From IMG/VR virus record IMGVR_UViG_2585427735_000020: DNA of 36,110 bases; one strand, written 5' to 3'. A program made the position numbers and the translations under genes. This DNA comes from a virus (taxonomy: Duplodnaviria; Heunggongvirae; Uroviricota; Caudoviricetes). Positions 3,906 through 29,064 of this stretch are shown here, in pieces; the stretch's first letter is position 1; each line of letters opens with the position of its first letter. Under the pieces are notes generated by a model. It had not been told where the DNA came from, ran no database searches, and saw only the letters and a list, made by a program, of their open reading frames with translations.

Positions 3906-4177
3906 GTATTCGTATTGAAATTGGCGAACGTTATGTCGTTACCAGTGACAGCTTTCAGTTTATTCTCCACGAGAAAAAGAGAGCGGAAAGCGGTAAAAAC
4001 GCCGGTCAGGAATGGCTGGCGGTGGTTGGTTATTACCCGAAATTAAGCCAGCTCGTTTCCGGCCTGATGCATCACGATATTCTGACCGGAAGCGCAAAGT
4101 CTTTTGCTGATTTAAACGCGCAGGTTGAGCAACTCAGCAAGCGTTGTTCAGAGGCTTTTGGCTCATATGACCGTTAA
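3902..4177 (+). CDS. Small early protein (P2 orf83-like), 91 aa
   Basis: Coupled ORF directly upstream of gene A. Confidence 0.5.
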   Translation: MSIRIEIGERYVVTSDSFQFILHEKKRAESGKNAGQEWLAVVGYYPKLSQLVSGLMHHDILTGSAKSFADLNAQVEQLSKRCSEAFGSYDR

Positions 4178-6269
4178 AGCCTCCGGGCATTTTGTCCCTC
4201 CGTCAGTATTTGCCGCAGGCACCGGTGAGACGTTTACCGGTGCTTATGCATGGAACGCGCCACGCGAGGCCGTCGGGCGCGAAAGACCCCTTACACGTGA
4301 CGAGATGCGTCAGGTGCAAGGTGTTTTATCCACGATTAACCGCCTGCCTTACTTTTTGCGCTCGCTGTTTACTTCACGCTATGACTACATCCGGCGCAAT
4401 AAAAGCCCGGTGCACGGGTTTTATTTCCTCACATCCACTTTTCAGCGTCGTTTATGGCCGCGCATTGAGCGTGTGAATCAGCGCCATGAAATGAACACCG
4501 ACGCGTCGTTGCTGTTTCTGGCAGAGCGTGACCACTATGCGCGCCTGCCGGGAATGAATGACAAGGAGCTGAAAAAGTTTGCCGCCCGTATCTCATCGCA
4601 GCTTTTCATGATGTATGAGGAACTCAGCGATGCCTGGGTGGATGCACATGGCGAAAAAGAATCGCTGTTTACGGATGAGGCGCAGGCTCACCTCTATGGT
4701 CATGTTGCTGGCGCTGCACGTGCTTTCAATATTTCCCCGCTTTACTGGAAAAAATACCGTAAAGGACAGATGACCACGAGGCAGGCATATTCTGCCATTG
4801 CCCGTCTGTTTAACGATGAGTGGTGGACTCATCAGCTCAAAGGCCAGCGTATGCGCTGGCATGAGGCGTTACTGATTGCTGTCGGGGAGGTGAATAAAGA
4901 CCGTTCTCCTTATGCCAGTAAACATGCCATTCGTGATGTGCGTGCACGCCGCCAGGCAAATCTGGAATTTCTTAAATCGTGTGACCTTGAAAACAGGGAA
5001 ACCGGCGAGCGCATCGACCTTATCAGTAAGGTGATGGGCAGTATTTCTAATCCTGAAATTCGCCGGATGGAGCTGATGAACACCATTGCCGGTATTGAGC
5101 GTTACGCCGCCGCAGAGGGTGATGTGGGGATGTTTATCACGCTTACCGCGCCGTCAAAGTATCACCCGACACGTCAGGTCGGAAAAGGCGAAAGTAAAAC
5201 CGTCCAGCTAAATCACGGCTGGAACGATGAGGCATTTAATCCAAAGGATGCGCAACGTTATCTCTGCCATATCTGGAGCCTGATGCGCACGGCATTCAAG
5301 GATAATGATTTACAGGTCTACGGTTTGCGTGTCGTCGAGCCACACCACGACGGAACGCCGCACTGGCATATGATGCTTTTTTGTAATCCACGCCAGCGTA
5401 ACCAGATTATCGAAATTATGCGTCGCTATGCGCTCAAAGAGGATGGCGACGAAAGAGGAGCCGCGCGAAACCGTTTTCAGGCAAAACACCTTAACCAGGG
5501 CGGTGCTGCGGGGTATATCGCGAAATACATCTCAAAAAACATCGATGGCTATGCACTGGATGGTCAGCTCGATAACGATACCGGCAGACCGCTGAAAGAC
5601 ACGGCTGCGGCTGTTACCGCATGGGCGTCAACGTGGCGCATCCCACAATTTAAAACGGTTGGTCTGCCGACAATGGGGGCTTACCGTGAACTACGAAAAT
5701 TGCCTCGCGGCGTCAGCATTGCTGATGAGTTTGACGAGCGCGTCGAGGCTGCACGCGCCGCCGCAGACAGTGGTGATTTTGCGTTGTATATCAGCGCGCA
5801 GGGTGGGGCAAATGTCCCGCGCGATTGTCAGACTGTCAGGGTCGCCCGTAGTCCGTCGGATGAAGTTAACGAGTACGAGGAAGAAGTCGAGAGAGTGGTC
5901 GGCATTTACGCGCCGCATCTCGGCGCGCGTCATATTCATATCACCAGAACGACGGACTGGCGCATTGTGCCGAAAGTTCCGGTCGTTGAGCCTTTGACTT
6001 TAAAAAGCGGCATCGCCGCGCCTCGGAGTCCTGTCAATAACTGTGGAAAGCTCACCGGTGGTGATACTTCGTTACCGGCTCCCACGCCTTCTGAGCACGC
6101 CGCAGCAGTGCTTAATCTGGTTGATGACGGTGTTATCGAATGGAATGACCCGGAGGTCGTGAGGGCGCTCAGAGGTGCACTAAAACACGGTCTAAGGACA
6201 CAAAATTATCTGCGAGACACAGCTCGCTCCCTAGATTCATGTTTACTCATGATTGGTGATTTTATATAA
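4167..6269 (+). CDS. A: Rolling-circle replication initiator gpA (HUH endonuclease)
   Basis: About 700 aa; HWHMMLF (HUH-like) and GYIAKYISK tyrosine motif; start taken as the ATG at 4167 (the track's TTG at 4125 is possible). Confidence 0.85.
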   Translation: MTVKASGHFVPPSVFAAGTGETFTGAYAWNAPREAVGRERPLTRDEMRQVQGVLSTINRLPYFLRSLFTSRYDYIRRNKSPVHGFYFLTSTFQRRLWPRIERVNQRHEMNTDASLLFLAERDHYARLPGMNDKELKKFAARISSQLFMMYEELSDAWVDAHGEKESLFTDEAQAHLYGHVAGAARAFNISPLYWKKYRKGQMTTRQAYSAIARLFNDEWWTHQLKGQRMRWHEALLIAVGEVNKDRSPYASKHAIRDVRARRQANLEFLKSCDLENRETGERIDLISKVMGSISNPEIRRMELMNTIAGIERYAAAEGDVGMFITLTAPSKYHPTRQVGKGESKTVQLNHGWNDEAFNPKDAQRYLCHIWSLMRTAFKDNDLQVYGLRVVEPHHDGTPHWHMMLFCNPRQRNQIIEIMRRYALKEDGDERGAARNRFQAKHLNQGGAAGYIAKYISKNIDGYALDGQLDNDTGRPLKDTAAAVTAWASTWRIPQFKTVGLPTMGAYRELRKLPRGVSIADEFDERVEAARAAADSGDFALYISAQGGANVPRDCQTVRVARSPSDEVNEYEEEVERVVGIYAPHLGARHIHITRTTDWRIVPKVPVVEPLTLKSGIAAPRSPVNNCGKLTGGDTSLPAPTPSEHAAAVLNLVDDGVIEWNDPEVVRALRGALKHGLRTQNYLRDTARSLDSCLLMIGDFI

Positions 6270-6451
6270 AAGCGGGGAGTGGTCTTCAAAATGCTCCTGT
6301 AGCATTACGTGTAGACTTATAATAGAAATTATATACAAATCAATAAGTTATTTTTGTTTTGTATTATGTGTTGATGCTTTGGTTTCATAATGTAAAAATT
6401 ATCAGAAATTCTCTGCTTGTAGTTTCGTCATATAACGAAAGGGATTGCTTA

Positions 6452-9400
6452 ATGTTTAATTCTTATACTGAATTTGTAAAGTCTTTGGTATTGGATATTC
6501 GGAAAGGTAAAGACGTTAGTTTTCTTCTGGGGTCAGCCGTGAGTTGCTCGCCGGAGGGGAATGGGGTACCGGGCGTTTCAGGGATGAATGATATTCTGCG
6601 GCAATATATGATTGATTTAGATATTTATGATGGCTTTGAAAGTAACATAATCGGTTTAAGTGAAACTGATAAATATCAAAAAAGTTTCGAATACCTTTTG
6701 AAGGTAGGTGATCAAGATGAAGTTAAAGAAATAATGGCTCTTGCAATGAATAATGCAAGGAGCGGCGACAAATGGTTAATTACTAAATCACTTGATGATT
6801 TTTCAAGGCTTATTTCAGAAACTAGCATTAAAGTAAAATGCATACTTACAACAAATTTTGATCCATTGATTGAAGAGGCATTGTTTAGAGTAAATAGAAA
6901 TTGTAATGTACATAATCTTATTGTAGATCAACCAATTGGTAGCGTTACCAGCTATTCAGGCGAATCCATTCCCGTAGTGCATTTACATGGAGTTTGGGAT
7001 GGAGATACTATGCATACTCAAACTCAGCTTTCTTCATTGAGGAAAAAAATTGAGTTGTCAATAAAAAATATATTGGATACAAGTAAATTATATGTTATTG
7101 GATATGCAGGTTGGGATGATGTTTTTCTACAGGCGTTAAGAAACATCGTCCATGAGTTTCAGCCAAGTTATAATGTTAGATGGGGTTTTTATAAAAACTC
7201 AATTGATGATGTGAGTAAAGAACATTCACGATTGATTGAAATTATTCAACCAGCGCTTGTTAATGCTCGTTTTCAAGGATATGTTGGGGTTGACTGTAAT
7301 ACATACTTTGAAGATGCTTTGGCTGAGATTAGTAAAAAAAAACAATTAAGTAAGTTTGTTGTAAAAAAAACTGGATTACAGCCGATAACAGAAAGCATAG
7401 TTATTTCGCTGAGACCCTATAACCTTTCAGTTGAGCCTGCGCATGATATAATTAGATTAGTAGAGCAAAAAAAAGCCACTGATTATTTAAATAATAACAA
7501 TCATTTTGAGCTTGTTTCTGGTTGGGGATACGGAAAAGCAGGTTTTTTATATTCTTTTATTCATGATGAATTTTATGATTTCACATGTTATTATAGTGAT
7601 GTCAATGGATTGACTGAATCTCGTGATATTGAAGTTAAAATAAAACAGGATATCGGTATCGATATTGCAACCTTCATATCTAATAATGGATTAGGAAAGC
7701 GGATTTTAATTCTTGATAACATAGCCAGACTTCCTCCATCAACTAAAGCTTTCTTTTCTGAGATTGCGAAATTATCATCAGATCTTAGTTCTGGTGTGAA
7801 AGTTATTTTTGTATCAGCGACATGTAACGGGATATGCTCTGGTATAGTGGAATTACAGCCTTTATCTTTAGATGATATAAAGGAGTATATTAAAGTTGGC
7901 ACTGATATTACTGAAATAAAAAGAGAGAAACTTGATAGGTTGTATGAAATAACAAATGGAATACCTTTAAAATTAGATAAGGTTAAAGAGTATTATGAGT
8001 TAATGTCATTTGATGAAGTCCTTGATGCAGGGAATATTGTTGTTTCGGCAGAGGGAACAAATACGGACATTCCACACTACATATCCAAGCAAATAAACGA
8101 GATTAGAAGTGATAATAGAAAACTATATTCATTACTATGCATTTTCTCTATGCTTGAATATGGGGAGAAATTGACAAATATTCGCTCTTATTATTCATCG
8201 TATGATTTTCATTTTGATGATTTCGCAAAACTAGAAAGATATGGTCTGATTTATACAATTACAAAGGATAATTATAAAATATTAAGGATATCACCAGTTG
8301 TTAGTGATTTTGTAAAGCAGGGTATGGATCCTAACCAACGGTATGAACTTGTAAAAAAATCCCTAGGACTTTGTATCGGTAGCGATTGGATGTCAGGGAA
8401 AGTGAGAGTCTCTCCTACAGTGAAGATGATGCTTGAAAGCACGGAGTTTTATCCTGGAAATGTCCATTCAGCTATTAGTTCATACTTTTCATTAATAGAT
8501 ATTAATAATTATGATCGAGAAGTCAAATCATTAATACATGTTTCTATAGGATATTGCATCTTTTTAAAGAGTGCATGTTACTATAAAGAACTCGTCGCAT
8601 TTTCTCGGATGCTTTATTCTAATATTTCTCATTTGGATATTCTTGATAAATTTAGGGCTGCGTATTTTTTGGCTACAAGTTTAAGAATGATTGATGAGGT
8701 TGAACAAAGTGTTGAATTTATTGAGCCTTTAAGTGATGAGTTCGAGGCAAAAGAGTTTTGTCAAAAGGAATATTATTTTAAAATGCTTGATAATATTATG
8801 ATGGCATGCTCTGAATATAATGATGAAAAAGCACGAAAATACGCAATAAAATTAAAAAAGATAGCTCCAAAGTCTTCTAGTTATTATATCAATGCTGAAG
8901 TTCATTTGGCTGACGAATTGTCTCATGGTAAAAGGGTTAATAAGCTTATTTCTCTCGAGAAAAAGTCCCGAGCTGCTGGGTATAACACGCTGGCTAATAA
9001 TATTAGCATTAAACTTCATTATTTGTTTTCTGGTTCATCTTTCAAATATATTGATAATGCCATAAAAAATGAAGGGGGAGTGTATACTAAGGCCAGGGCG
9101 TTACTTGTTAAGTATGAAGAGTTGGTACGTTGCGGAGAGTTTGAAAAAATTGATGCGGAGGGGGTGAGGGAATTAAAGGCCGTTTATGATTATTTGTTCT
9201 TGCAGCGATTAGATGAGCTTTTTAACAGATGTACCGATGTGTTATGGCAGCTTATGAAAGCGTATCGGGATGTTAATGGCTTATACTACTTATTTAAGCG
9301 TGGTTCTGTAATTTGGCGTGTAACCTCATCTTATGATAAAGAGTTAGAATATGCTAAGGAGTTGAATGAGCAACAGTTTGATATCAGTGGAGGAGGTGAT

Positions 9401-9487
9401 GATATGAAATATTTATCAATCAGACTGAGTTTTTTGGCACTAAAGGTGGAGCGAGATAAGTGTCTGATTGATGCTCCAACATTGTAA
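6452..9487 (+). CDS. Cargo protein, 1011 aa: N-terminal SIR2-like domain + STAND-like NTPase core + C-terminal helical repeats (SIR2-STAND/Avs5-like or DSR-like candidate defence protein)
   Basis: ATG 6452 with GAAAGGGA SD; SIR2 motifs FLLGSAVS...GVPG, TTNFD (6848..6862), HLHG (6980..6991), IGYAGWDD; then GWGYGKAG (7520..7543), ILILDN (about 7700..7720), GIPLKL (7958..7975); AT-rich, replaces tin/old between A and cos. Confidence 0.6.
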   Translation: MFNSYTEFVKSLVLDIRKGKDVSFLLGSAVSCSPEGNGVPGVSGMNDILRQYMIDLDIYDGFESNIIGLSETDKYQKSFEYLLKVGDQDEVKEIMALAMNNARSGDKWLITKSLDDFSRLISETSIKVKCILTTNFDPLIEEALFRVNRNCNVHNLIVDQPIGSVTSYSGESIPVVHLHGVWDGDTMHTQTQLSSLRKKIELSIKNILDTSKLYVIGYAGWDDVFLQALRNIVHEFQPSYNVRWGFYKNSIDDVSKEHSRLIEIIQPALVNARFQGYVGVDCNTYFEDALAEISKKKQLSKFVVKKTGLQPITESIVISLRPYNLSVEPAHDIIRLVEQKKATDYLNNNNHFELVSGWGYGKAGFLYSFIHDEFYDFTCYYSDVNGLTESRDIEVKIKQDIGIDIATFISNNGLGKRILILDNIARLPPSTKAFFSEIAKLSSDLSSGVKVIFVSATCNGICSGIVELQPLSLDDIKEYIKVGTDITEIKREKLDRLYEITNGIPLKLDKVKEYYELMSFDEVLDAGNIVVSAEGTNTDIPHYISKQINEIRSDNRKLYSLLCIFSMLEYGEKLTNIRSYYSSYDFHFDDFAKLERYGLIYTITKDNYKILRISPVVSDFVKQGMDPNQRYELVKKSLGLCIGSDWMSGKVRVSPTVKMMLESTEFYPGNVHSAISSYFSLIDINNYDREVKSLIHVSIGYCIFLKSACYYKELVAFSRMLYSNISHLDILDKFRAAYFLATSLRMIDEVEQSVEFIEPLSDEFEAKEFCQKEYYFKMLDNIMMACSEYNDEKARKYAIKLKKIAPKSSSYYINAEVHLADELSHGKRVNKLISLEKKSRAAGYNTLANNISIKLHYLFSGSSFKYIDNAIKNEGGVYTKARALLVKYEELVRCGEFEKIDAEGVRELKAVYDYLFLQRLDELFNRCTDVLWQLMKAYRDVNGLYYLFKRGSVIWRVTSSYDKELEYAKELNEQQFDISGGGDDMKYLSIRLSFLALKVERDKCLIDAPTL

Positions 9488-9803: not shown

Positions 9804-10838
9804 TCAGCCGTTGTCAGTGTCCAGTGAGTAGTTTTTAAAGCGGATGACCTCCTGACCGAGCCAGCCGTTTATCTCGCGGATCCTGTCCTGTAACGGGATA
9901 AGCTCATTGCGGACAAAGACCTTTGCCACTTTCTCAATATCACCCAGCGACCCGACGTTCTCCGGCTTGCCGCCCATCAACTGAAAGGGGATGCGGTGCG
10001 CGTCCAGCAGGTCAGCGGCGCTGGCTTTTTTGATATTAAAAAAATCGTCCTTCGTTGCCACTTCACTGAGCGGGATAATTTTAATGCCGTCGGCTTTTCC
10101 CTGCGGGGCATAGAGAAACAGATTTTTAAAGTTGTTGCGGCCTTTCGACTTGACCATGTTTTCGCGAAGCATTTCGATATCGTTGCGATCCTGCACGGCA
10201 TCAGTGACGTACATGATGTATCCGGCATGTGCGCCGTTTTCGTAATACTTGCGGCGGAACAGCGTGGCTGACTCATTCAGCCAGGCAGAGTTAAGGGCGC
10301 TGAGATATTCCGGCATGCCGTACAGCTCCTGATTAATATCCGGCTCCAGCAGATGAAACACGGAGCCGGGCGCGAAAGGTGTCGGCTCGTTGAAGGACGG
10401 CACCCACCAGTAAACATCCTCCTCCACGCCACGGCGGGGATATTTTGCCGGTGAGGTTTCCAGTCTGATGACCTTACCGGTGGTGCTGTAACGCTTTTCC
10501 AGAAACGCATTACCGAACACCAGAAAATCCAGCACAAAACGGCTGAAATCCTGCTGGGAAAGCCACGGGTGCGGGATAAACGTTGAAGCCAGAATATTAC
10601 GTTTGACGTAAATCGGTGAGCTGTGATGCACGGCAGCACGCAGGCTTTTTGCCAGACCGGTAAAGCTGACCGGCGGCTCATACCATCTGCCGTTACTGAT
10701 ACATTCGACGTAATCCAGAATGTCACGGCGGTCGAGCACCGGCACCGGCTCACCAAAGGTGAATGCCTCCATTTTCGGGGCGCTGGCGGTCATTTTTTTT
10801 GCCGCAGGTTGCGGTGTTTTCCCTTTTTTCTTGCTCAT
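9804..10838 (-). CDS. Q: Portal protein gpQ, 344 aa
   Basis: 344 aa, same as P2 Q; start overlaps the P stop. Confidence 0.9.
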   Translation of the reverse strand: MSKKKGKTPQPAAKKMTASAPKMEAFTFGEPVPVLDRRDILDYVECISNGRWYEPPVSFTGLAKSLRAAVHHSSPIYVKRNILASTFIPHPWLSQQDFSRFVLDFLVFGNAFLEKRYSTTGKVIRLETSPAKYPRRGVEEDVYWWVPSFNEPTPFAPGSVFHLLEPDINQELYGMPEYLSALNSAWLNESATLFRRKYYENGAHAGYIMYVTDAVQDRNDIEMLRENMVKSKGRNNFKNLFLYAPQGKADGIKIIPLSEVATKDDFFNIKKASAADLLDAHRIPFQLMGGKPENVGSLGDIEKVAKVFVRNELIPLQDRIREINGWLGQEVIRFKNYSLDTDNG

Positions 10839-21475: not shown

Positions 21476-23794
21476 ATGAGCACAAAATTCAGAACCGTTA
21501 TCACCACTGCCGGTGCAGCAAAGCTGGCAGCGGCAACCGCACCGGGAGGGCGGAAGGTCAACATTACCACGATGGCCGTCGGGGATGGCGGTGGTAAATT
21601 GCCTGTCCCGGATGCCGGACAGACCGGGCTTATCCACGAAGTCTGGCGACATGCGCTGAACAAAATCAGCCAGGACAAACGAAACAGTAATTATATTATC
21701 GCAGAGCTGGTTATTCCGCCGGAGGTGGGCGGTTTCTGGATGCGTGAGCTTGGCCTGTACGATGATGCGGGAACGTTAATTGCTGTGGCGAACATGGCCG
21801 AAAGTTATAAGCCAGCTCTTGCCGAAGGCTCAGGGCGTTCGCAGACCTGCCGTATGGTCATCATCGTCAGCAGTGTGACCTCAGTGGCGCTGACCATTGA
21901 CACCACAACGGTGATGGCGACGCAGGATTACGTTGATGACAAAATTGCAGAGCATGAACAGTCACGACGTCACCCGGACGCCTCGCTGACCGCAAAAGGT
22001 TTTACTCAGTTAAGCAATGCGACCAACAGCACGTCTGAAACACTGGCCGCAACGCCGAAAGCGGTAAAGGCCGCGTATGATCTTGCTAACGGGAAATACA
22101 CTGCGCAGGATGCCACCACAGCGCGAAAAGGTCTTGTCCAGCTCAGTAGCGCCACCAACAGCACGTCTGAAACGCTCGCCGCAACACCAAAAGCGGTAAA
22201 GGCAGCATATGACCTTGCTAACGGGAAATACACTGCACAGGACGCCACCACAGCGCGAAAAGGTCTTGTCCAGCTCAGTAGCGCCACCAACAGCGATTCT
22301 GAAACGCTTGCGGCAACGCCAAAGGCGGTTAAGACAGCGTATGACCTTGCTAACGGGAAATACACTGCACAGGACGCCACCACGGCGCGGAAAGGTCTTG
22401 TCCAGCTCAGTAGCGCCACCAACAGTGATTCTGAAACGCTGGCCGCAACATCAAAAGCGGTGAAGTCTGCCTATGACAATGCTGAAAAACGTCTTCAGAA
22501 AGATCAGAACGGTGCGGATATTCCGGGAAAGGATACCTTCACGAAAAATATCGGTGCCTGTCGTGCTTATAGCGGCGCTTTGAGCACTGAAGCCGGAAAC
22601 TGGACAACCGCTCAGTTTATTGAATGGCTGGATTCCCGTGGTGCATTTAATCATCCGTACTGGATGTGCAAAGGCTCATGGTCATATGCAAATAACAAAA
22701 TCATTACGGATACCGGATGTGGTGATATCCACCTGGATGGTTGTGTCGTCGAGGTCATGGGAACTAAATCTGCAATCACTATCCGAGTGACCACGCCGAC
22801 AACATCAAGTGGTGGCGGTACAACCAGCGCGCAATTCACTTACATTAATCATGGGGACGGCTACTCCCCCGGCTGGCGTCGTGACTGGAATCGTCAGGGC
22901 GACTCAATGACCGGAACGATTAATCAGGATGGCGGAAGCCAGAATGCCTATATGTCTACGGCCTTATGTTCAGGCACCAGAGGCGGCAAAAAATATCTCA
23001 GAAAGTTTCGTGGTGGAGAAGGAGACACTATCTGGCATGAAACAGTACAGGGCGGGGTAGTTCGCTGGGCGACTGGTAATACTGATGCTCAGGAAGAATT
23101 ATCACTCAGCTCCGCTTATGGTCTCCGTTCAAGAGGTGAGATTACATCACTCAGTGCTAATGGTCTGCGCATTGCTTATGGCAATTATGGTTTCTTTATC
23201 AGGAATGATGGCAGCAGCACTTATTTTATGTTGACTAAATCAGGTGACAGATTAGGCAGTTATAATAATTTAAGACCGCTGATTATAAATGATGCCACGG
23301 GTGCTGTATCAATGGGGCATGGCCTGAATGTTACTGGTGATATTGTCTCAAGTACCAAAGTACGTGCCGGTAGCGGGAAAAAATTCACGGTCAGCAGCAG
23401 TAATACATCCACGAAGGAAGCCGCATTCAATTTGTGGGGAAACTCAAGTCGTCCGGTGGTGGCTGAATTAGGTGATGATGCAGGCTGGCATTTTTACAGT
23501 CAGAGAAATACAGATAACAGCATCACTTTTGCTGTTAACGGGCAGGTATCACCATCTAACTATGGCAACTTTGATTCACGCTATGTCCGGGATATCCGGC
23601 TTGGTGGTGCTGCCACATACAAACCTGCGAACAATGGCATGACATGGACACATCAGGCACCGTCCGGGTGTGTATATTCCGGCATTATTGTTCAGGATAC
23701 CGGCTCAAACTCTGCCGATAACATTGGTGGCATATATTACAGACCGGTGCAGAAATACATTAACGGGACATGGTATAACGTGGCGCAGGTATAA
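21476..23794 (+). CDS. H: Tail fibre protein gpH, 772 aa, with internal tandem repeats
   Basis: Conserved N-terminal tail-fibre region, then 132-nt repeats, then a lower-GC C-terminal receptor-binding region. Confidence 0.85.
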   Translation: MSTKFRTVITTAGAAKLAAATAPGGRKVNITTMAVGDGGGKLPVPDAGQTGLIHEVWRHALNKISQDKRNSNYIIAELVIPPEVGGFWMRELGLYDDAGTLIAVANMAESYKPALAEGSGRSQTCRMVIIVSSVTSVALTIDTTTVMATQDYVDDKIAEHEQSRRHPDASLTAKGFTQLSNATNSTSETLAATPKAVKAAYDLANGKYTAQDATTARKGLVQLSSATNSTSETLAATPKAVKAAYDLANGKYTAQDATTARKGLVQLSSATNSDSETLAATPKAVKTAYDLANGKYTAQDATTARKGLVQLSSATNSDSETLAATSKAVKSAYDNAEKRLQKDQNGADIPGKDTFTKNIGACRAYSGALSTEAGNWTTAQFIEWLDSRGAFNHPYWMCKGSWSYANNKIITDTGCGDIHLDGCVVEVMGTKSAITIRVTTPTTSSGGGTTSAQFTYINHGDGYSPGWRRDWNRQGDSMTGTINQDGGSQNAYMSTALCSGTRGGKKYLRKFRGGEGDTIWHETVQGGVVRWATGNTDAQEELSLSSAYGLRSRGEITSLSANGLRIAYGNYGFFIRNDGSSTYFMLTKSGDRLGSYNNLRPLIINDATGAVSMGHGLNVTGDIVSSTKVRAGSGKKFTVSSSNTSTKEAAFNLWGNSSRPVVAELGDDAGWHFYSQRNTDNSITFAVNGQVSPSNYGNFDSRYVRDIRLGGAATYKPANNGMTWTHQAPSGCVYSGIIVQDTGSNSADNIGGIYYRPVQKYINGTWYNVAQV
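21995..22500 (+). repeat. In-frame tandem repeat inside H: 132-nt (44-aa) unit, about 3.7 copies
   Basis: Units start at 21995, 22127, 22259, 22391; unit is KGLVQLSSATNS(T/D)SETLAATPKAVKAAYDLANGKYTAQDATTAR. Confidence 0.85.
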
Positions 23795-23797
23795 TTT

Positions 23798-24325
23798 ATG
23801 CAGCATTTGATAAATATAACGGTGGGTAATCCAAAAACGGTTGAACAATATCAATTGACAAAGGACTTTGATGTTGTCTGGTTTTTTTCAGAAGATGGTA
23901 AGAACTGGTACGAAGAACAAAAGTATTTTGCTGATGACACGATAAAAATAGCGTACGACAAAGATAATATTATCCGCTATGTGGAAAAGGATGTGACAGC
24001 TATCAGACCAGATGGATTAAGTGTGGTTGAAGTGGCGGATATTACTGCTAACCGACGGGCGGACATTTCAGGGAACTGGATGTTTAAGGACGGCAAAGTG
24101 ATTAAACGCATTTATACGGCAGAGGAATTGCAGCAGCAGGCAGAAAACCGGAAAGCCAGACTTCTTGCAGATGCTGAATCCGTGATTTTGCCACTGGAGC
24201 GCGCTGTCAGGCTGAACATGGCAACAGATGAGGAGCGTAGCCGACTGGAAGCATGGGAACGCTACAGTGTTCTGGTCAGCCGTGTGGATCCTGCAAATCC
24301 TGAATGGCCGGAAATGCCGCAATAA
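23798..24325 (+). CDS. G: Tail fibre assembly chaperone gpG, 175 aa
   Basis: 175 aa immediately after H. Confidence 0.8.
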
Positions 24326-24360
24326 GTTGTATAAGCTCTGGTGTGAGATTACATATCTAT

Positions 24361-24410
24361 GGCACAGAGTAAAGCCTAATCTGACAGTCCGCTCTGTGCC
24401 AAGAGCGGAC
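24361..24410 (+). terminator. Two overlapping, mutually exclusive 9-bp hairpins downstream of G (possible terminator)
   Basis: GGCACAGAG(24361..24369)/CTCTGTGCC(24392..24400) and GTCCGCTCT(24387..24395)/AGAGCGGAC(24402..24410); no clear U-tract. Confidence 0.3.
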
Positions 24411-24734
24411 GTTACTACTACTCGACCTAAAGTAAAGTAATTGTACTCATTAAATAGTGGTAATTGGGTCTGGTGCTTAATCGAACGAAATCTCATGTTA
24501 GGCGAAAAAAACGTCTGAAAAATCGATTAACACATACACCTGTGTACTATGGCCGTTATTCAATTTAAAAGGAACCATTTCCGATATGATTCACTGTCCA
24601 TAATGTTTTGATTTATTAAAAAAGAGCCTTAGAGTGTGAAACCATTACGTTGAGTGGCGAACACCATTAATAAATTCTGCTTATACTTACAGCATATATT
24701 ATGTTCACGTCATATAACCATGGCAAATAAGATA

Positions 24735-24763
24735 TTGCACATCAAGCATGATTATGATAGTGA
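24735..24763 (+). promoter_or_regulatory. Candidate sigma70-like promoter for the first cargo-2 gene
   Basis: TTGCAC (24735..24740) with TATGAT/TAGTGA-like hexamers 13-18 bp downstream in an AT-rich intergenic region; weak. Confidence 0.2.
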
Positions 24764-24800
24764 TTACAAAAATGAAGAATCTTAGATAAAGGATTAGTAA

Positions 24801-25736
24801 GTGGTTACATATAATTCAATGTTGTTACCCCCCCCTAAATCTTGGGACGAATTTGAGGATATGTGCAAAAGTTCATTCCAACTGCGATGGTCCAATCCTA
24901 ATCTGAACAGACATGGACGGTCAGGGCAGCGGCAGGATGGAGTTGATGTATATGGTGATGACTCTCTTGGGCGTTTCGTTGGAATTCAGTGTAAAAATAC
25001 AGTATCAGGAATCAGTACGGCGACAATCGATGATGAATTACTCAAGGCTGAAAAATTTCGCCCAAAAATTACGGTTCTTTACATCGCTACGACAGCGCCC
25101 AGGGATGTTAGCATTCAGCGCTATGTAAGAACACTCAATGATGCCAGACAATTAAAAGGCCTGTTTCCTGTCGATGTGGTTTTCTGGGAGGATATTAGCT
25201 TTGATTTAAGCAAAGACCCAGCTGTACTCAAAATGTACTACCCGCAAATGTTCGAACGACACCAACCGACGAGGGAAGAATTTTTGCGCAAGAGAGATAT
25301 CTCAAATTTGTCGACATTGTTGAATGTTATTGATTTTCATTCAACAATAGACCATTTGCAGTGGGGCGCAAAATACATTCATTCATTAATTATTGAAGAA
25401 TACGATAATATTTTGAACATTTTAAACTCACCTGTTTTTCAACTGAATGATACAGCTTTAAAGAATGTTACAATTGATTTTGCAACGGCCTGGCGTGATC
25501 TAATTATCTTGTTTAGAAAAGCTCCATATAATTATTCAGCACCAAATGATACTTTTAGTTTTATAAATCCCGGTGACCACTGTCGAAATCAGGAGGAAAG
25601 CGATTTATACGACGAAATCACGCATAGCATGAGTAATCTCAAAGATAAAATTAGTACTTTTTGTGACTTTATAAATAATCACTACCATGAAATAAACTTA
25701 ACCGAAACGAGCGCGCAAGCCAGGAAATATTATTAA
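24801..25736 (+). CDS. Cargo protein, 311 aa: Mrr-type PD-(D/E)xK restriction-endonuclease-like N-terminal domain + uncharacterised C-terminal domain
   Basis: GTG start 7 nt after AAAGGA; FEDM...RHGRSGQRQDGVDVYGDD...GRFVGIQCKNT (nt about 24912..24998) resembles the Mrr catalytic core (D...D...QxK); AT-rich, between G and FI. Confidence 0.55.
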   Translation: MVTYNSMLLPPPKSWDEFEDMCKSSFQLRWSNPNLNRHGRSGQRQDGVDVYGDDSLGRFVGIQCKNTVSGISTATIDDELLKAEKFRPKITVLYIATTAPRDVSIQRYVRTLNDARQLKGLFPVDVVFWEDISFDLSKDPAVLKMYYPQMFERHQPTREEFLRKRDISNLSTLLNVIDFHSTIDHLQWGAKYIHSLIIEEYDNILNILNSPVFQLNDTALKNVTIDFATAWRDLIILFRKAPYNYSAPNDTFSFINPGDHCRNQEESDLYDEITHSMSNLKDKISTFCDFINNHYHEINLTETSAQARKYY

Positions 25737-26518
25737 TACTTTTTTCTTAAGGGCTGCACTCATGGCCCTTAACACCGTTAGACTGTCATATTTTGCAATC
25801 GATACGCAGTTAGGTACTTTCTTGAAGTCCGTTCCTCGCTCATAGCTGACATTCAGCTCAATTAAATCGTCCACTTCGCTCCAACAGAAGGCGTAGCTAA
25901 TCATACTGTGTATTAAAGAAAGGAGAAACGATCATGTTGAGTACAAAAAACACGAAAGACCATGATAAGGAAAATATGCGTAGAGTGACTTAGTTTATTG
26001 ATTTAAATAATATTTATGGGGGTAAGTGCTTTGAATAAAAAAACAAAAATTGAGAAGATTTAGCTAGTGCCAAAATAATTTGGACACCGCCCGTCATCAG
26101 ACCCGCTACTACACTTATCACCCCAGCCCAAAAAGTTTCAATGAAACAAGATACATATAGTAGTACAACATGGCGGAATAATTTACTCATAGGCTTCTCC
26201 TTACTGACGTAATCGTTAAGTAACGTTGAGGTAACGGATAAATGCGACTATTGGGAGAGCTGTGATGAGAATTGTAGGCATAGGAATCGAACCTATGGAT
26301 GCACTAGCTAAATTCACTCTTCACGAATTATACAGCATTGTAGTGAGTTTGTAAATACACGCCCCAAAAGTCAATCAGTCCGATCCATGAATGTTGTGTC
26401 AGTACTACTAAAGTTAAACATGCTAAAATAGGTTCCCAATATTCGTGGGTACAATCACTATCTGTGTAACTGGCGGAAGCGCTGGCATAACGACGATGCC
26501 TATTCGGGGGGCTTTAAT

Positions 26519-27385
26519 ATGGTCCGTTTTAACTTACTAGAAAATGCGTTGGATTCAGTGGAAACCGGGCTGGACTACTTTAACAAAGCGCTAGAAGGGC
26601 ATGATCGACGTGACTACAAACAGTGCCTGCTTAACCTCTTTCAGGCCGCTGAGCTATTGTTGAAGGCCGTAGTTTCGCGCAATGGGTCTGGAGCGATTTT
26701 TAATCCAGCATCGCTTCAAGAAAAATGTGTGGATCCGGCGCATCCAACCGAGTCAGAATTACACCAGTGTAAATCTGTCAACGTCAACCAGCTTTGTAAG
26801 CTGTTAAAGACATATTACCCAGCCGAATTTTCTGAATCTGCATTACAAATGATGAAAACGGTGGGTCAGTTGCGTAATAACCTTCAGCATTTTGCCCTTG
26901 AGGTTCGTCCGCAAGAACTGGCAATGCAACTGAGTGAACTGTACCAACAAATTTTTCGTCCCGCATTCGTCATAATTCAGTCAGATGAGACCGAAAATTC
27001 ATGGAACTCTGATTTACGTCAAGACATCATCGCTCTTGAGCAACAATTCCTTGATATAACTGTTAACCAGGAATACACCCTTGCACTTTGTCCCGTTTGT
27101 GAGAGTTTTTCACATTTTATCCTTTACCAAGGTGAAAGCTTTCCGGCACGGACTCACTGTATCTGTTGTGGTTTCAGCCTGAATAATCTGCAAACTTGGG
27201 ATTTTCAGGAATGTCCTGAATGTAGTGTCCCATCCGTAATTTATTTACCGGAACAAAGGGTCGGTGTCTGTCTCTGGTATAAATGTGAATACAGCAAGAT
27301 GGATGGTTTTGTTCCTATGGAGCCTTGTGAATGTGGTGCATTCCGGATGGAAGGTCATTGCAGTAACTGCGATCTTGAGGAATAG
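26519..27385 (+). CDS. Cargo protein, 288 aa: HEPN-like helical N-terminal domain (Rx4H) + C-terminal multi zinc-ribbon domain
   Basis: ATG 26519 after a G-rich SD; LRNNLQH at 26873..26890; CPVC, CICC, CPEC, Cx4C, CEC, CSNC pairs across 27089..27370. Confidence 0.55.
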   Translation: MVRFNLLENALDSVETGLDYFNKALEGHDRRDYKQCLLNLFQAAELLLKAVVSRNGSGAIFNPASLQEKCVDPAHPTESELHQCKSVNVNQLCKLLKTYYPAEFSESALQMMKTVGQLRNNLQHFALEVRPQELAMQLSELYQQIFRPAFVIIQSDETENSWNSDLRQDIIALEQQFLDITVNQEYTLALCPVCESFSHFILYQGESFPARTHCICCGFSLNNLQTWDFQECPECSVPSVIYLPEQRVGVCLWYKCEYSKMDGFVPMEPCECGAFRMEGHCSNCDLEE

Positions 27386-27747
27386 TAAAATCGTCCGATG
27401 AGAATGTACAGCAGCCTGGTCGATGATTTCTTGATGAATCGCTGAATTATCCGGTATTACTTGACAACTAAATCGCACATTTCTGTTTCTGGCAATTTGA
27501 AAGGTTTACTCTATGCCCCAGAATTCAGCACATACATAAAAACACCATTTCAGAACGCGTCTTGATCCAAAGAACGACTGTATGATAGATAGGCGTCGTC
27601 GTGAGGACAGGAATGATCTACCCCCCGTTATTCATACAGAATGCTGTTAGTAATGTCCGCAGATCGCTCAAAGCAGACTGTCAGATTTGATAGCGTTTGG
27701 GCTATGTAAGTAGCCAGTTGGAGAATGAGTGAGTGCAAATCAGGACT

Positions 27748-27789
27748 GGCGGGGGGAATGGCCGCCCTTTTTTTTTTTTTTTTTTTTTT
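27748..27789 (+). terminator. GC hairpin followed by a 22-nt poly(T) tract (terminator-like, at the cargo-2 / late-operon boundary)
   Basis: GGCGG (27748..27752), 9-nt loop, CCGCC (27762..27766), then T x22 (27768..27789). Confidence 0.45.
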
Positions 27790-27873
27790 ATCCACTGACC
27801 AGCCAGGTCAAATAGCGTCTCATGCACTGCCCAACAGAAAATAGTTGCACCCATTAACCACGGAGTTAAACGG

Positions 27874-29064
27874 ATGAGTGACTATCATCACGGCGTGCAG
27901 GTGCTGGAGATTAACGACGGCACCCGCGTCATTTCCACCGTATCCACTGCCATTGTCGGCATGGTCTGCACGGCCAGCGATGCGGATGCGGGAACCTTCC
28001 CCCTCAATAAACCTGTGCTGATTACCAATGTGCAGAGCGCAATTGCAAAGGCCGGTAAAAAAGGCACGCTGGCGGCATCGTTGCAGGCCATCGCTGACCA
28101 GTCAAAACCGGTCACCGTTGTCGTGCGCGTGGAAGACGGCACCGGCGACGACGAAGAAACGAAACTCGCGCAGACTGTTTCCAATATCATCGGCACCACC
28201 GACGAAAACGGTCAGTACACCGGACTGAAAGCCCTGCTGGCGGCGGAGTCGGTAACCGGTGTTAAACCGCGTATTCTCGGTGTGCCGGGACTGGATACCA
28301 AAGAGGTGGCTGTTGCACTGGCATCCGTCTGTCAGAAGCTGCGCGCTTTCGGGTATATCAGCGCATGGGGCTGTAAAACCATTTCCGAGGTGAAAGCCTA
28401 CCGCCAGAATTTCAGCCAGCGTGAGCTGATGGTCATCTGGCCGGATTTCCTCGCATGGGATACGGTCACCAGTACCACCGCCACCGCGTATGCCACCGCC
28501 CGTGCGCTGGGGCTGCGCGCTAAAATCGACCAGGAGCAGGGCTGGCATAAAACGCTGTCCAATGTCGGGGTGAACGGTGTTACCGGCATCAGCGCCTCTG
28601 TATTCTGGGATTTGCAGGAGTCCGGCACCGATGCTGACCTGCTTAACGAGTCAGGCGTCACAACGCTGATTCGCCGTGACGGTTTCCGATTCTGGGGTAA
28701 CCGTACCTGCTCTGATGACCCGCTGTTCCTCTTTGAAAACTACACTCGCACCGCGCAGGTGCTGGCCGACACGATGGCTGAGGCGCACATGTGGGCGGTG
28801 GACAAGCCCATCACCGCAACGCTGATTCGCGACATCGTTGACGGCATCAATGCCAAATTCCGTGAGCTGAAAACAAACGGCTATATCGTGGATGCGACCT
28901 GCTGGTTCAGCGAAGAATCCAACGATGCGGAAACCCTTAAGGCCGGAAAACTGTATATCGACTACGACTATACTCCGGTGCCTCCTCTTGAAAACCTGAC
29001 CCTGCGCCAGCGTATTACCGATAAATACCTGGCAAATCTGGTCACCTCGGTTAACAGCAATTAA
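27874..29064 (+). CDS. FI: Contractile tail sheath protein gpFI, 396 aa
   Basis: 396 aa; GGAG SD; P2 order. Confidence 0.9.
   Translation: MSDYHHGVQVLEINDGTRVISTVSTAIVGMVCTASDADAGTFPLNKPVLITNVQSAIAKAGKKGTLAASLQAIADQSKPVTVVVRVEDGTGDDEETKLAQTVSNIIGTTDENGQYTGLKALLAAESVTGVKPRILGVPGLDTKEVAVALASVCQKLRAFGYISAWGCKTISEVKAYRQNFSQRELMVIWPDFLAWDTVTSTTATAYATARALGLRAKIDQEQGWHKTLSNVGVNGVTGISASVFWDLQESGTDADLLNESGVTTLIRRDGFRFWGNRTCSDDPLFLFENYTRTAQVLADTMAEAHMWAVDKPITATLIRDIVDGINAKFRELKTNGYIVDATCWFSEESNDAETLKAGKLYIDYDYTPVPPLENLTLRQRITDKYLANLVTSVNSN

Follow-up and report, generated by a model that had tools for sequence, protein, structure and literature searches.

The stretch of DNA analysed here (the window, 36,110 nucleotides) is a P2-like prophage carrying gpA, portal, tail-fibre, tail-fibre assembly, tube and sheath genes. 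Between the tail-fibre assembly gene and the sheath gene lies a low-GC insert (GC 0.38-0.45 versus 0.55-0.59), and it is this insert that holds the target gene, which encodes a 288-aa protein with an N-terminal HEPN domain followed by three predicted zinc ribbons. The principal features are the following:

4125-6269, gpA gene
9804-10838, portal gene
21476-23794, plus strand, tail fibre gene
23798-24325, tail-fibre assembly gene, on the gpG side of the cargo
24378-24417, unstranded, left inverted repeat of the P2 Z-region cargo site, 40 nt
24801-25736, plus strand, upstream cargo gene (Mrr-like), 311 aa
25780-25792, unstranded, repeat core (AGACTGTCATATT) in its third copy, located between the upstream cargo gene and the target gene
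25825-27678, unstranded, self-contained mobile block of 1.85 kb comprising the target gene with about 700 bp of 5' flank and 290 bp of 3' flank
26470-26518, plus strand, last ~49 nt before the target ATG
26519-27385, plus strand, HEPN and triple zinc-ribbon gene, ATG start, stop codon counted
27648-27687, unstranded, right inverted repeat of the P2 Z-region cargo site, 40 nt
27874-29064, sheath gene, on the gpFI side of the cargo

A Shine-Dalgarno-like G-rich stretch (26506-26511) is located 7 nt 5' of the start codon. The RefSeq gene for WP_000251361.1, annotated as a 'hypothetical protein', is 99.9% identical to the target gene at the DNA level, and the PHROGs entry for the protein is phrog_20819, of unknown function.

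Both 40-nt repeats align with their annotated counterparts, left and right, in the record AJ512683 ('Bacteriophage P2-EC58 proviral Z-region'), and the target gene is situated inside them, between gpG and gpFI, as is characteristic of P2 Z-region cargo. The third copy of the repeat core (4 matches versus 0.6 expected) falls between the two cargo genes, a position that suggests that two cassettes were stacked by the same recombination process; the core is missing from the locus of E. coli Ec1119 (L002), which has the target block alone. The Z-region is not mentioned in the accessible parts of Rousset et al. (2022), which treats the P2 gpA-gpQ (old/tin) hotspot, or of a 2026 P2/P4 preprint. Just beyond the right inverted repeat, before the sheath gene begins, a terminator-like hairpin with a long T run after it occupies 27751-27790 (plus strand); the same stretch also pairs with 26032-26049 as an A/T-rich inverted match. 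Promoter and terminator scans returned fewer sites than shuffled sequence and hence were not counted as evidence, and an Rfam scan of 24300-27900 gave nothing meaningful.

Elsewhere in the prophage, the interval between gpA and the portal gene corresponds to the P2 old/tin cargo hotspot described by Rousset et al. (2022). In a low-GC island within it (GC 0.32-0.39), a gene on the plus strand (6359-9487) encodes a protein of 1,042 aa, which contains a SIR2-like domain and matches Pfam SIR2_2 (E 3e-7) as well as the PADLOC models Aga_SIR2/pAgo-associated SIR2 and PDC-S65. With this gene occupying the old/tin hotspot, the prophage therefore contains three defence-like cargo genes. The tail fibre protein includes three near-identical tandem copies of a segment of ~45 aa (TAQDATTARKGLVQLSSATNS.SETLAATPKAVK.AYDLANGKY).

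The layout of the target protein, derived from its sequence conservation and a predicted structure, is as follows:

26519-26983, plus strand, HEPN domain, aa 1-155, with predicted helices 1 (aa 6-27), 2 (aa 30-55), 3 (aa 106-124) and 4 (aa 131-155) and an insert (aa 56-105) between helices 2 and 3
26651-26665, plus strand, accessory Ex3[KR] motif E45-x3-K49 (E45-L-L-L-K49) in HEPN helix 2
26873-26890, plus strand, predicted catalytic R119-N120-N-L-Q123-H124 (Rx4H) at the C-terminal end of helix 3
26984-27073, plus strand, linker, aa 156-185, with a helix at aa 165-181; the most variable stretch of the protein
27074-27178, plus strand, predicted zinc-ribbon module 1, aa 186-220, C191, C194, C214 and C217
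27194-27292, plus strand, predicted zinc-ribbon module 2, aa 226-258, C232, C235, C251 and C256
27302-27382, plus strand, predicted zinc-ribbon module 3, aa 262-288, C270, C272, C281 and C284

The earlier note on this sequence had pointed to a helical N-terminal region, to an HEPN-like LRNNLQH motif (R119-x4-H124) and to six C-terminal Cys pairs, and these readings are borne out. Measured against the description of the HEPN superfamily by Anantharaman et al. 2013 (PMC3710099), the protein displays a four-helix up-down bundle with an insert, an Rx4-6H motif that ends helix 3, a polar residue (N120) directly after the arginine and an Ex3[KR] motif in helix 2; the predicted structure agrees with the helical assignment and places the Rx4H motif in the canonical position. 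Conservation singles out the same residues. Among 19 close homologues, down to 28% identity, R119, N120, Q123, H124, F125 and ten of the cysteines are invariant and C251 and C256 nearly so. In an alignment of 62 superfamily members with a mean column identity of 22%, the sole invariant columns are K34, K49, R119, H124 and all 12 cysteines, with E45 conserved at 90% or more. On these alignments, the motif and the Cys pairs lie far beyond what chance would produce.

The 12 cysteines, arranged as CPVC (191), CICC (214), CPEC (232), CLWYKC (251), CEC (270) and CSNC (281), fit three Cys4 modules, the top of the range of two to three zinc ribbons first proposed. Module 1 forms a three-stranded sheet in the model and matches the RPB9/RpoM and L37Ae zinc ribbons in sequence-profile comparisons; module 2 is likewise backed by the model and by profile matches, and module 3 by the model. 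The C-terminal domain thus modelled would consist of three Cys4 zinc ribbons packed as one compact module, with zinc binding presumed from the cysteine pattern. A sequence-profile search of solved structures returned generic zinc ribbons only and no relative spanning the whole protein. Across the superfamily, identity in the zinc domain with its cysteines excluded is 17.9%, compared to 35.1% for the HEPN domain, a divergence consistent with a role of the zinc domain in specificity. The support for such a role is modest, because within the close clade the two domains are equally variable (50.7% identity for the zinc domain and 51.0% for the HEPN domain).

The same note did not recognise the fusion as a named defence protein, and here the family searches lead to a different conclusion, with a clear match to a known family. 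The best-scoring PADLOC family is PDC-S64 (E 3.7e-21, in two stretches, the better of which pairs aa 1-140 with positions 1-130 of the 339-position model). A weaker match to the HEC-08 model PDLC04162 (E 4.6e-6, 24 bits) extends over aa 14-285 and positions 20-300 of 358, and further PADLOC matches comprise PDC-S19, DUF3644 (E 8e-4) and, weakly, Csm6. In Pfam, DUF3644 (E 0.012; 15.7 bits compared to a curated cut-off of 27.6) and HEPN (E 0.03) are matched below threshold. Using the tested HEC-08 sequence from Table S2 of Payne et al., BLASTP aligned the HEPN part only, at 21% identity (E 6e-4) and with RNNLQHF opposite RNRVVHF, so that the window Rx4H coincides with R123...H128 of HEC-08. Profile-profile comparison with hhalign reached further: a profile of the close clade matched HEC-08 over aa 14-126 (probability 96%, E 4e-9), and a 62-member profile with the window protein as its first row matched aa 23-360 of HEC-08 at 99.7% (E 5.8e-26), three Cys4 modules included.

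An exhaustive profile search retrieved 1,724 cluster representatives (50% identity) at E up to 1e-3, most of them 290-330 aa long and matching end to end; six C-terminal Cys pairs are present in 92 of 113 full-length representatives. Every one of the 62 sampled superfamily members, among them named proteins from Photobacterium and the Firmicute Natranaerobius, matches PDC-S64 (best 5.9e-141), and 58 of the 62 also match the HEC-08 and DUF3644 models. The window clade is ~24% identical to typical PDC-S64-like members. Judged by these profile relationships, the window protein is a divergent clade of the PDC-S64/HEC-08 superfamily and not a new kind of system; its architecture of HEPN plus zinc ribbons is already known, having been catalogued in 2013 and again as PDC-S64. 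A literature search found no paper that mentions 'PDC-S64'.

Within E. coli, the target gene is rare and mobile. It occurs in 28 of 5,426 complete genomes (0.5%), and the 1.85-kb block around it is also present, 98.7% identical, at E. coli locations that lack the Mrr-like gene. In two further genomes whose context was examined, the block resides in a tRNA-Thr island, at the tail-fibre end of a degenerate prophage, and in both it comes after genes for DUF2971, DUF4236 and an S1 peptidase. In one of these islands, that of E. coli CP66-6, the block adjoins a P4-like remnant with a reverse transcriptase. This remnant (L013 13059-15424) includes psu and ogr/delta, and its P4 defence hotspot is occupied by genes for a 542-aa RNA-directed DNA polymerase and a hypothetical protein. 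The overall distribution is patchy, spread over varied mobile elements and defence islands.

This distribution also bears on whether the protein has an immune function at all. It could be a non-immune protein that binds nucleic acid or processes RNA, for example a regulator of prophage genes with HEPN as a binding module, given that certain HEPN domains are non-catalytic (PMC3710099) and that, in sequence, the zinc ribbons are similar to ribbons found in transcription factors and in subunits of RNA polymerase. We regard this as very improbable: the catalytic set (the arginine, the polar residue after it, the histidine and the Ex3K motif) is invariant, the protein is homologous to a validated defence protein, and a patchy gene of varied mobile elements and defence islands, present in so small a fraction of E. 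coli genomes, does not fit such a role.

The earlier note had further raised, as something to test, the idea that the target works with the upstream Mrr-like gene, as toxin and antitoxin or as sensor and effector. The partner in such a pair would be the 311-aa gene or a small ORF in the upstream gap. The 311-aa gene occurs in 13 of the 28 target-bearing E. coli genomes and in E. coli is never found apart from the target (13/13 genomes), and the target is accompanied on its block by a hydrophobic ORF of 58 aa that has a near-consensus promoter. Against this, the target is intact in the 15 genomes that lack the 311-aa gene, homologues of the 311-aa protein stand alone elsewhere, and the two genes are separated by 780 bp and by the repeat copy that marks a cassette boundary. 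No conserved adjacent antitoxin gene, such as marks HEPN toxin-antitoxin pairs of the HepT/MntA type, was found: the ORFs upstream of the Dickeya, Serratia and Raoultella homologues show no relationship among themselves or to the window, which led us to reject a conserved upstream partner, and no MNT domain is encoded nearby. HEC-08, moreover, works as a single gene. Taken together, a two-gene system of this kind appears decidedly unlikely, and the proposed link to the Mrr-like gene was not upheld; by its distribution among genomes, the target is self-contained and independent of its upstream neighbour.

The 311-aa protein itself is without a Pfam, PADLOC or NCBIfam match. It belongs to a family of at least 173 proteins, some of which UniRef names 'Restriction endonuclease type IV Mrr domain', with about the first 150 aa widely conserved and variable C-termini. 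Its solo homologues are found on a Serratia chromosome, in Pantoea beside Ogr/DndB and on a Leclercia plasmid, and the gene is probably a separate single-gene defence candidate. A 288-aa ORF next to the homologue on the Leclercia plasmid was considered and proved unrelated to the target. The 58-aa ORF (26014-26190, minus strand) is a hypothetical protein according to PGAP and has no Pfam or Rfam match; a near-consensus sigma-70 promoter (26355-26327, minus strand; TTTACA-17-TATAAT, 11/12) is aimed at it. It could be a small membrane peptide, a type I toxin-like element or spurious.

Homologues at 50-75% identity sit in other mobile contexts. The Dickeya homologue is part of an ICE with RES, UvrD and methylase genes, the Serratia homologue is chromosomal and adjoins a type I-F CRISPR-Cas locus, and the Raoultella homologue lies in an IS-flanked patch with SymE. 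Furthermore, homologues at about 67% identity are present on 266 plasmid records, of which 253 represent conjugative plasmids. In this plasmid/ICE clade, a gene for a 362-aa RHH-like 'transcriptional regulator' (weak DUF6364 match) terminates at the ATG of the homologue, an arrangement resembling an antitoxin-toxin operon, and a convergent gene encodes a 521-aa ABC-type (OLD-like) ATPase for which HEC-04 and ATPase-Toprim_I-B score best in PADLOC. The three-gene arrangement is seen in L016 (5911-9492), L015 (5911-9492), L014 and L003 (7712-10500), loci from IncF and other plasmids and from the Dickeya ICE. Between loci the ATPases are 82-93% identical and the HEPN-zinc ribbon proteins 69-89%, and the recurrent arrangement may be either a system of several components or a small islet of defence genes. 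Of the RHH-like gene, the window holds only its 3' end, the ~49 nt at 26470-26518, which is the sole upstream DNA in common with the plasmid/ICE homologues and a further point against a two-gene pair in the prophage; tblastn detected no remnant of the 521-aa ATPase in the window. Some relatives may thus not act alone, because the plasmid/ICE gene abuts the RHH-like gene and is linked to the OLD-like ATPase.

A protein search of 50,697 deposited phage genomes yielded zero homologues. With 266 plasmid records carrying one, the selective target of the family is perhaps not phage alone. The protein might instead, or in addition, be an anti-plasmid factor in competition between elements, its HEPN RNase destabilising conjugative plasmids that enter the cell, for instance through breakdown of the RNA primer of replication, the mechanism put forward for Ishtar. 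The presence of one homologue on an ICE fits this idea, as do the Ishtar proteins (ist1/ist2; bioRxiv 10.64898/2026.07.06.735840), monogenic fusions of HEPN and a sensor that can clear plasmid RP4. However, the layout of Ishtar differs from that of the window protein, the closest tested relative, HEC-08, acts against phages, and a prophage cargo hotspot beside other defence-like genes fits an anti-phage role. We consider an anti-plasmid function unlikely on this balance.

In our favoured explanation, which we hold to be likely, the target gene is Z-region cargo encoding a single-polypeptide immune RNase of the HEC-08/PDC-S64 type, through which the P2-like prophage would protect its lysogen against other phages. 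The conserved HEPN set, the three-site zinc scaffold, the homology to HEC-08 and the status of a solo mobile gene in a hotspot lead us to infer a latent RNase governed by a zinc-array sensor. The enzyme would be latent without infection, and its active site would probably be completed across a dimer interface, as with other HEPN enzymes, a superfamily characterised by metal-independent RNase activity. The C-terminal zinc array, in which an invariant zinc scaffold would present a fast-evolving surface, would act as the sensor and bind a phage-derived cue; this cue is most likely a phage protein, by analogy to RAZR and HepS, and less likely phage nucleic acid. Binding would reposition or oligomerise the HEPN domains, and the resulting cleavage of tRNA or bulk RNA would stop translation and abort the infection.

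Several observations weigh against this explanation. Identity to HEC-08 is just 21% over the HEPN domain, and HEC-08 has four zinc modules compared to three here; the best PDC-S64 stretch covers just aa 1-140 and PDC-S64 is itself a candidate; and among the close homologues, variation is no greater in the zinc domain than in the HEPN domain. It is conceivable, though we find it doubtful, that the window clade is functionally distinct from HEC-08, with a triple-zinc-ribbon domain that senses a new class of trigger such as phage assembly geometry or nucleic-acid structure, and that its plasmid/ICE relatives form a hitherto undescribed three-gene module of RHH-like protein, HEPN-zinc ribbon protein and OLD/HEC-04-like ATPase, which in the prophage has been cut down to a stand-alone sensor-effector.

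Interpreted as an immune RNase of the HEC-08/PDC-S64 type, the target adds a compact 288-aa three-module clade to a large family of single-protein HEPN immune RNases that has hardly been studied and of which HEC-08 is the one experimentally tested member. It reveals no new principle, and its presence in a P2 cargo site will not surprise the specialist. Because it moves as a self-contained 1.85-kb block that includes its upstream region, and is found in a P2 cargo site as well as on many conjugative plasmids, it is a handy protein for studying the control of a HEPN nuclease by an array of zinc ribbons, and for learning whether phages, plasmids or both are policed.

Among known systems, HEC-08 from E. 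coli ECOR52 (WP_150698383.1; Payne, Hughes, Fineran, Jackson; bioRxiv 10.1101/2024.01.29.577857) is the closest tested relative. It is a single-gene defence that cuts phage plaquing, mutation of H128 in its Rx4-6H motif abolishes defence, and it was discovered embedded in Hma systems (bioRxiv 10.1101/2024.01.29.577857). Like the window protein, it is one protein from E. coli in which an N-terminal DUF3644-type HEPN domain with RNxxxHF precedes a C-terminal array of zinc-ribbon-like Cys4 modules, an array without structural neighbour in either case. HEC-08 is 366 aa long with eight Cys pairs in four modules, whereas the window protein has 288 aa and six pairs in three modules, the extra module of HEC-08 being inserted relative to the window protein; and the context of HEC-08 is that of Hma systems, whereas the target gene is P2 Z-region cargo. 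PDC-S64, a phage defence candidate of PADLOC-DB v2 from the same study as HEC-08, resembles the window protein in layout, most relatives having six Cys pairs and about 290-330 aa; PDC-S64 is a prediction, and its best stretch on the window protein is restricted to the HEPN part. The EC042_2821 family of HEPN proteins also combines a conserved Rx4-6H motif with zinc-ribbon fusions and restriction-modification contexts and overlaps Pfam DUF3644 (PMC3710099). Its type member has wHTH and REase domains, both of which the window protein lacks.

Other single HEPN proteins offer parallels of mechanism. HepS (Sargen et al., Nature 2026, PMC13043305; PDB 9oik), also encoded by a prophage, is switched on allosterically by tail-tip proteins of siphoviruses and cleaves the anticodon loops of tRNA; at 218 aa and located on the lambdoid Gifsy-1 prophage, it is without a zinc-ribbon domain, in contrast to the three predicted here. 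Ishtar resembles the window protein in being a monogenic, mobile-element-borne HEPN protein (DUF4145 or DUF3644) with a beta-rich C-terminal domain of unknown function. We rejected membership in this system, whose C-terminal domain is a Cys-free beta/alpha one: in the homologues of its Table S3, Cys clusters are absent and an N-terminal extension comes before the HEPN motif; by sequence comparison, Ishtar and the window protein are not homologous beyond the HEPN domain. By analogy, the best mechanistic model for the window protein is found in RAZR / PD-T7-4 (Zhang et al., Nature 2026, PMC13017515), albeit from a different family. RAZR is a one-protein abortive infection system, non-toxic alone, that joins a Cys4 zinc ribbon to a HEPN RNase; its zinc-finger domain, the most variable part of the protein, binds ring-forming phage proteins and sets specificity, and the RNase is switched on by induced oligomerisation (PMC13017515). 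Membership in RAZR / PD-T7-4 was likewise rejected, and no PD-T7-4 family appeared among the PADLOC matches of the window protein at E up to 1. Relative to the window protein, the domains of RAZR come in the opposite order, zinc finger N-terminal and HEPN C-terminal, and where RAZR has one zinc ribbon and a DUF4145-type HEPN domain, the window protein is predicted to have three and a DUF3644-like HEPN domain.
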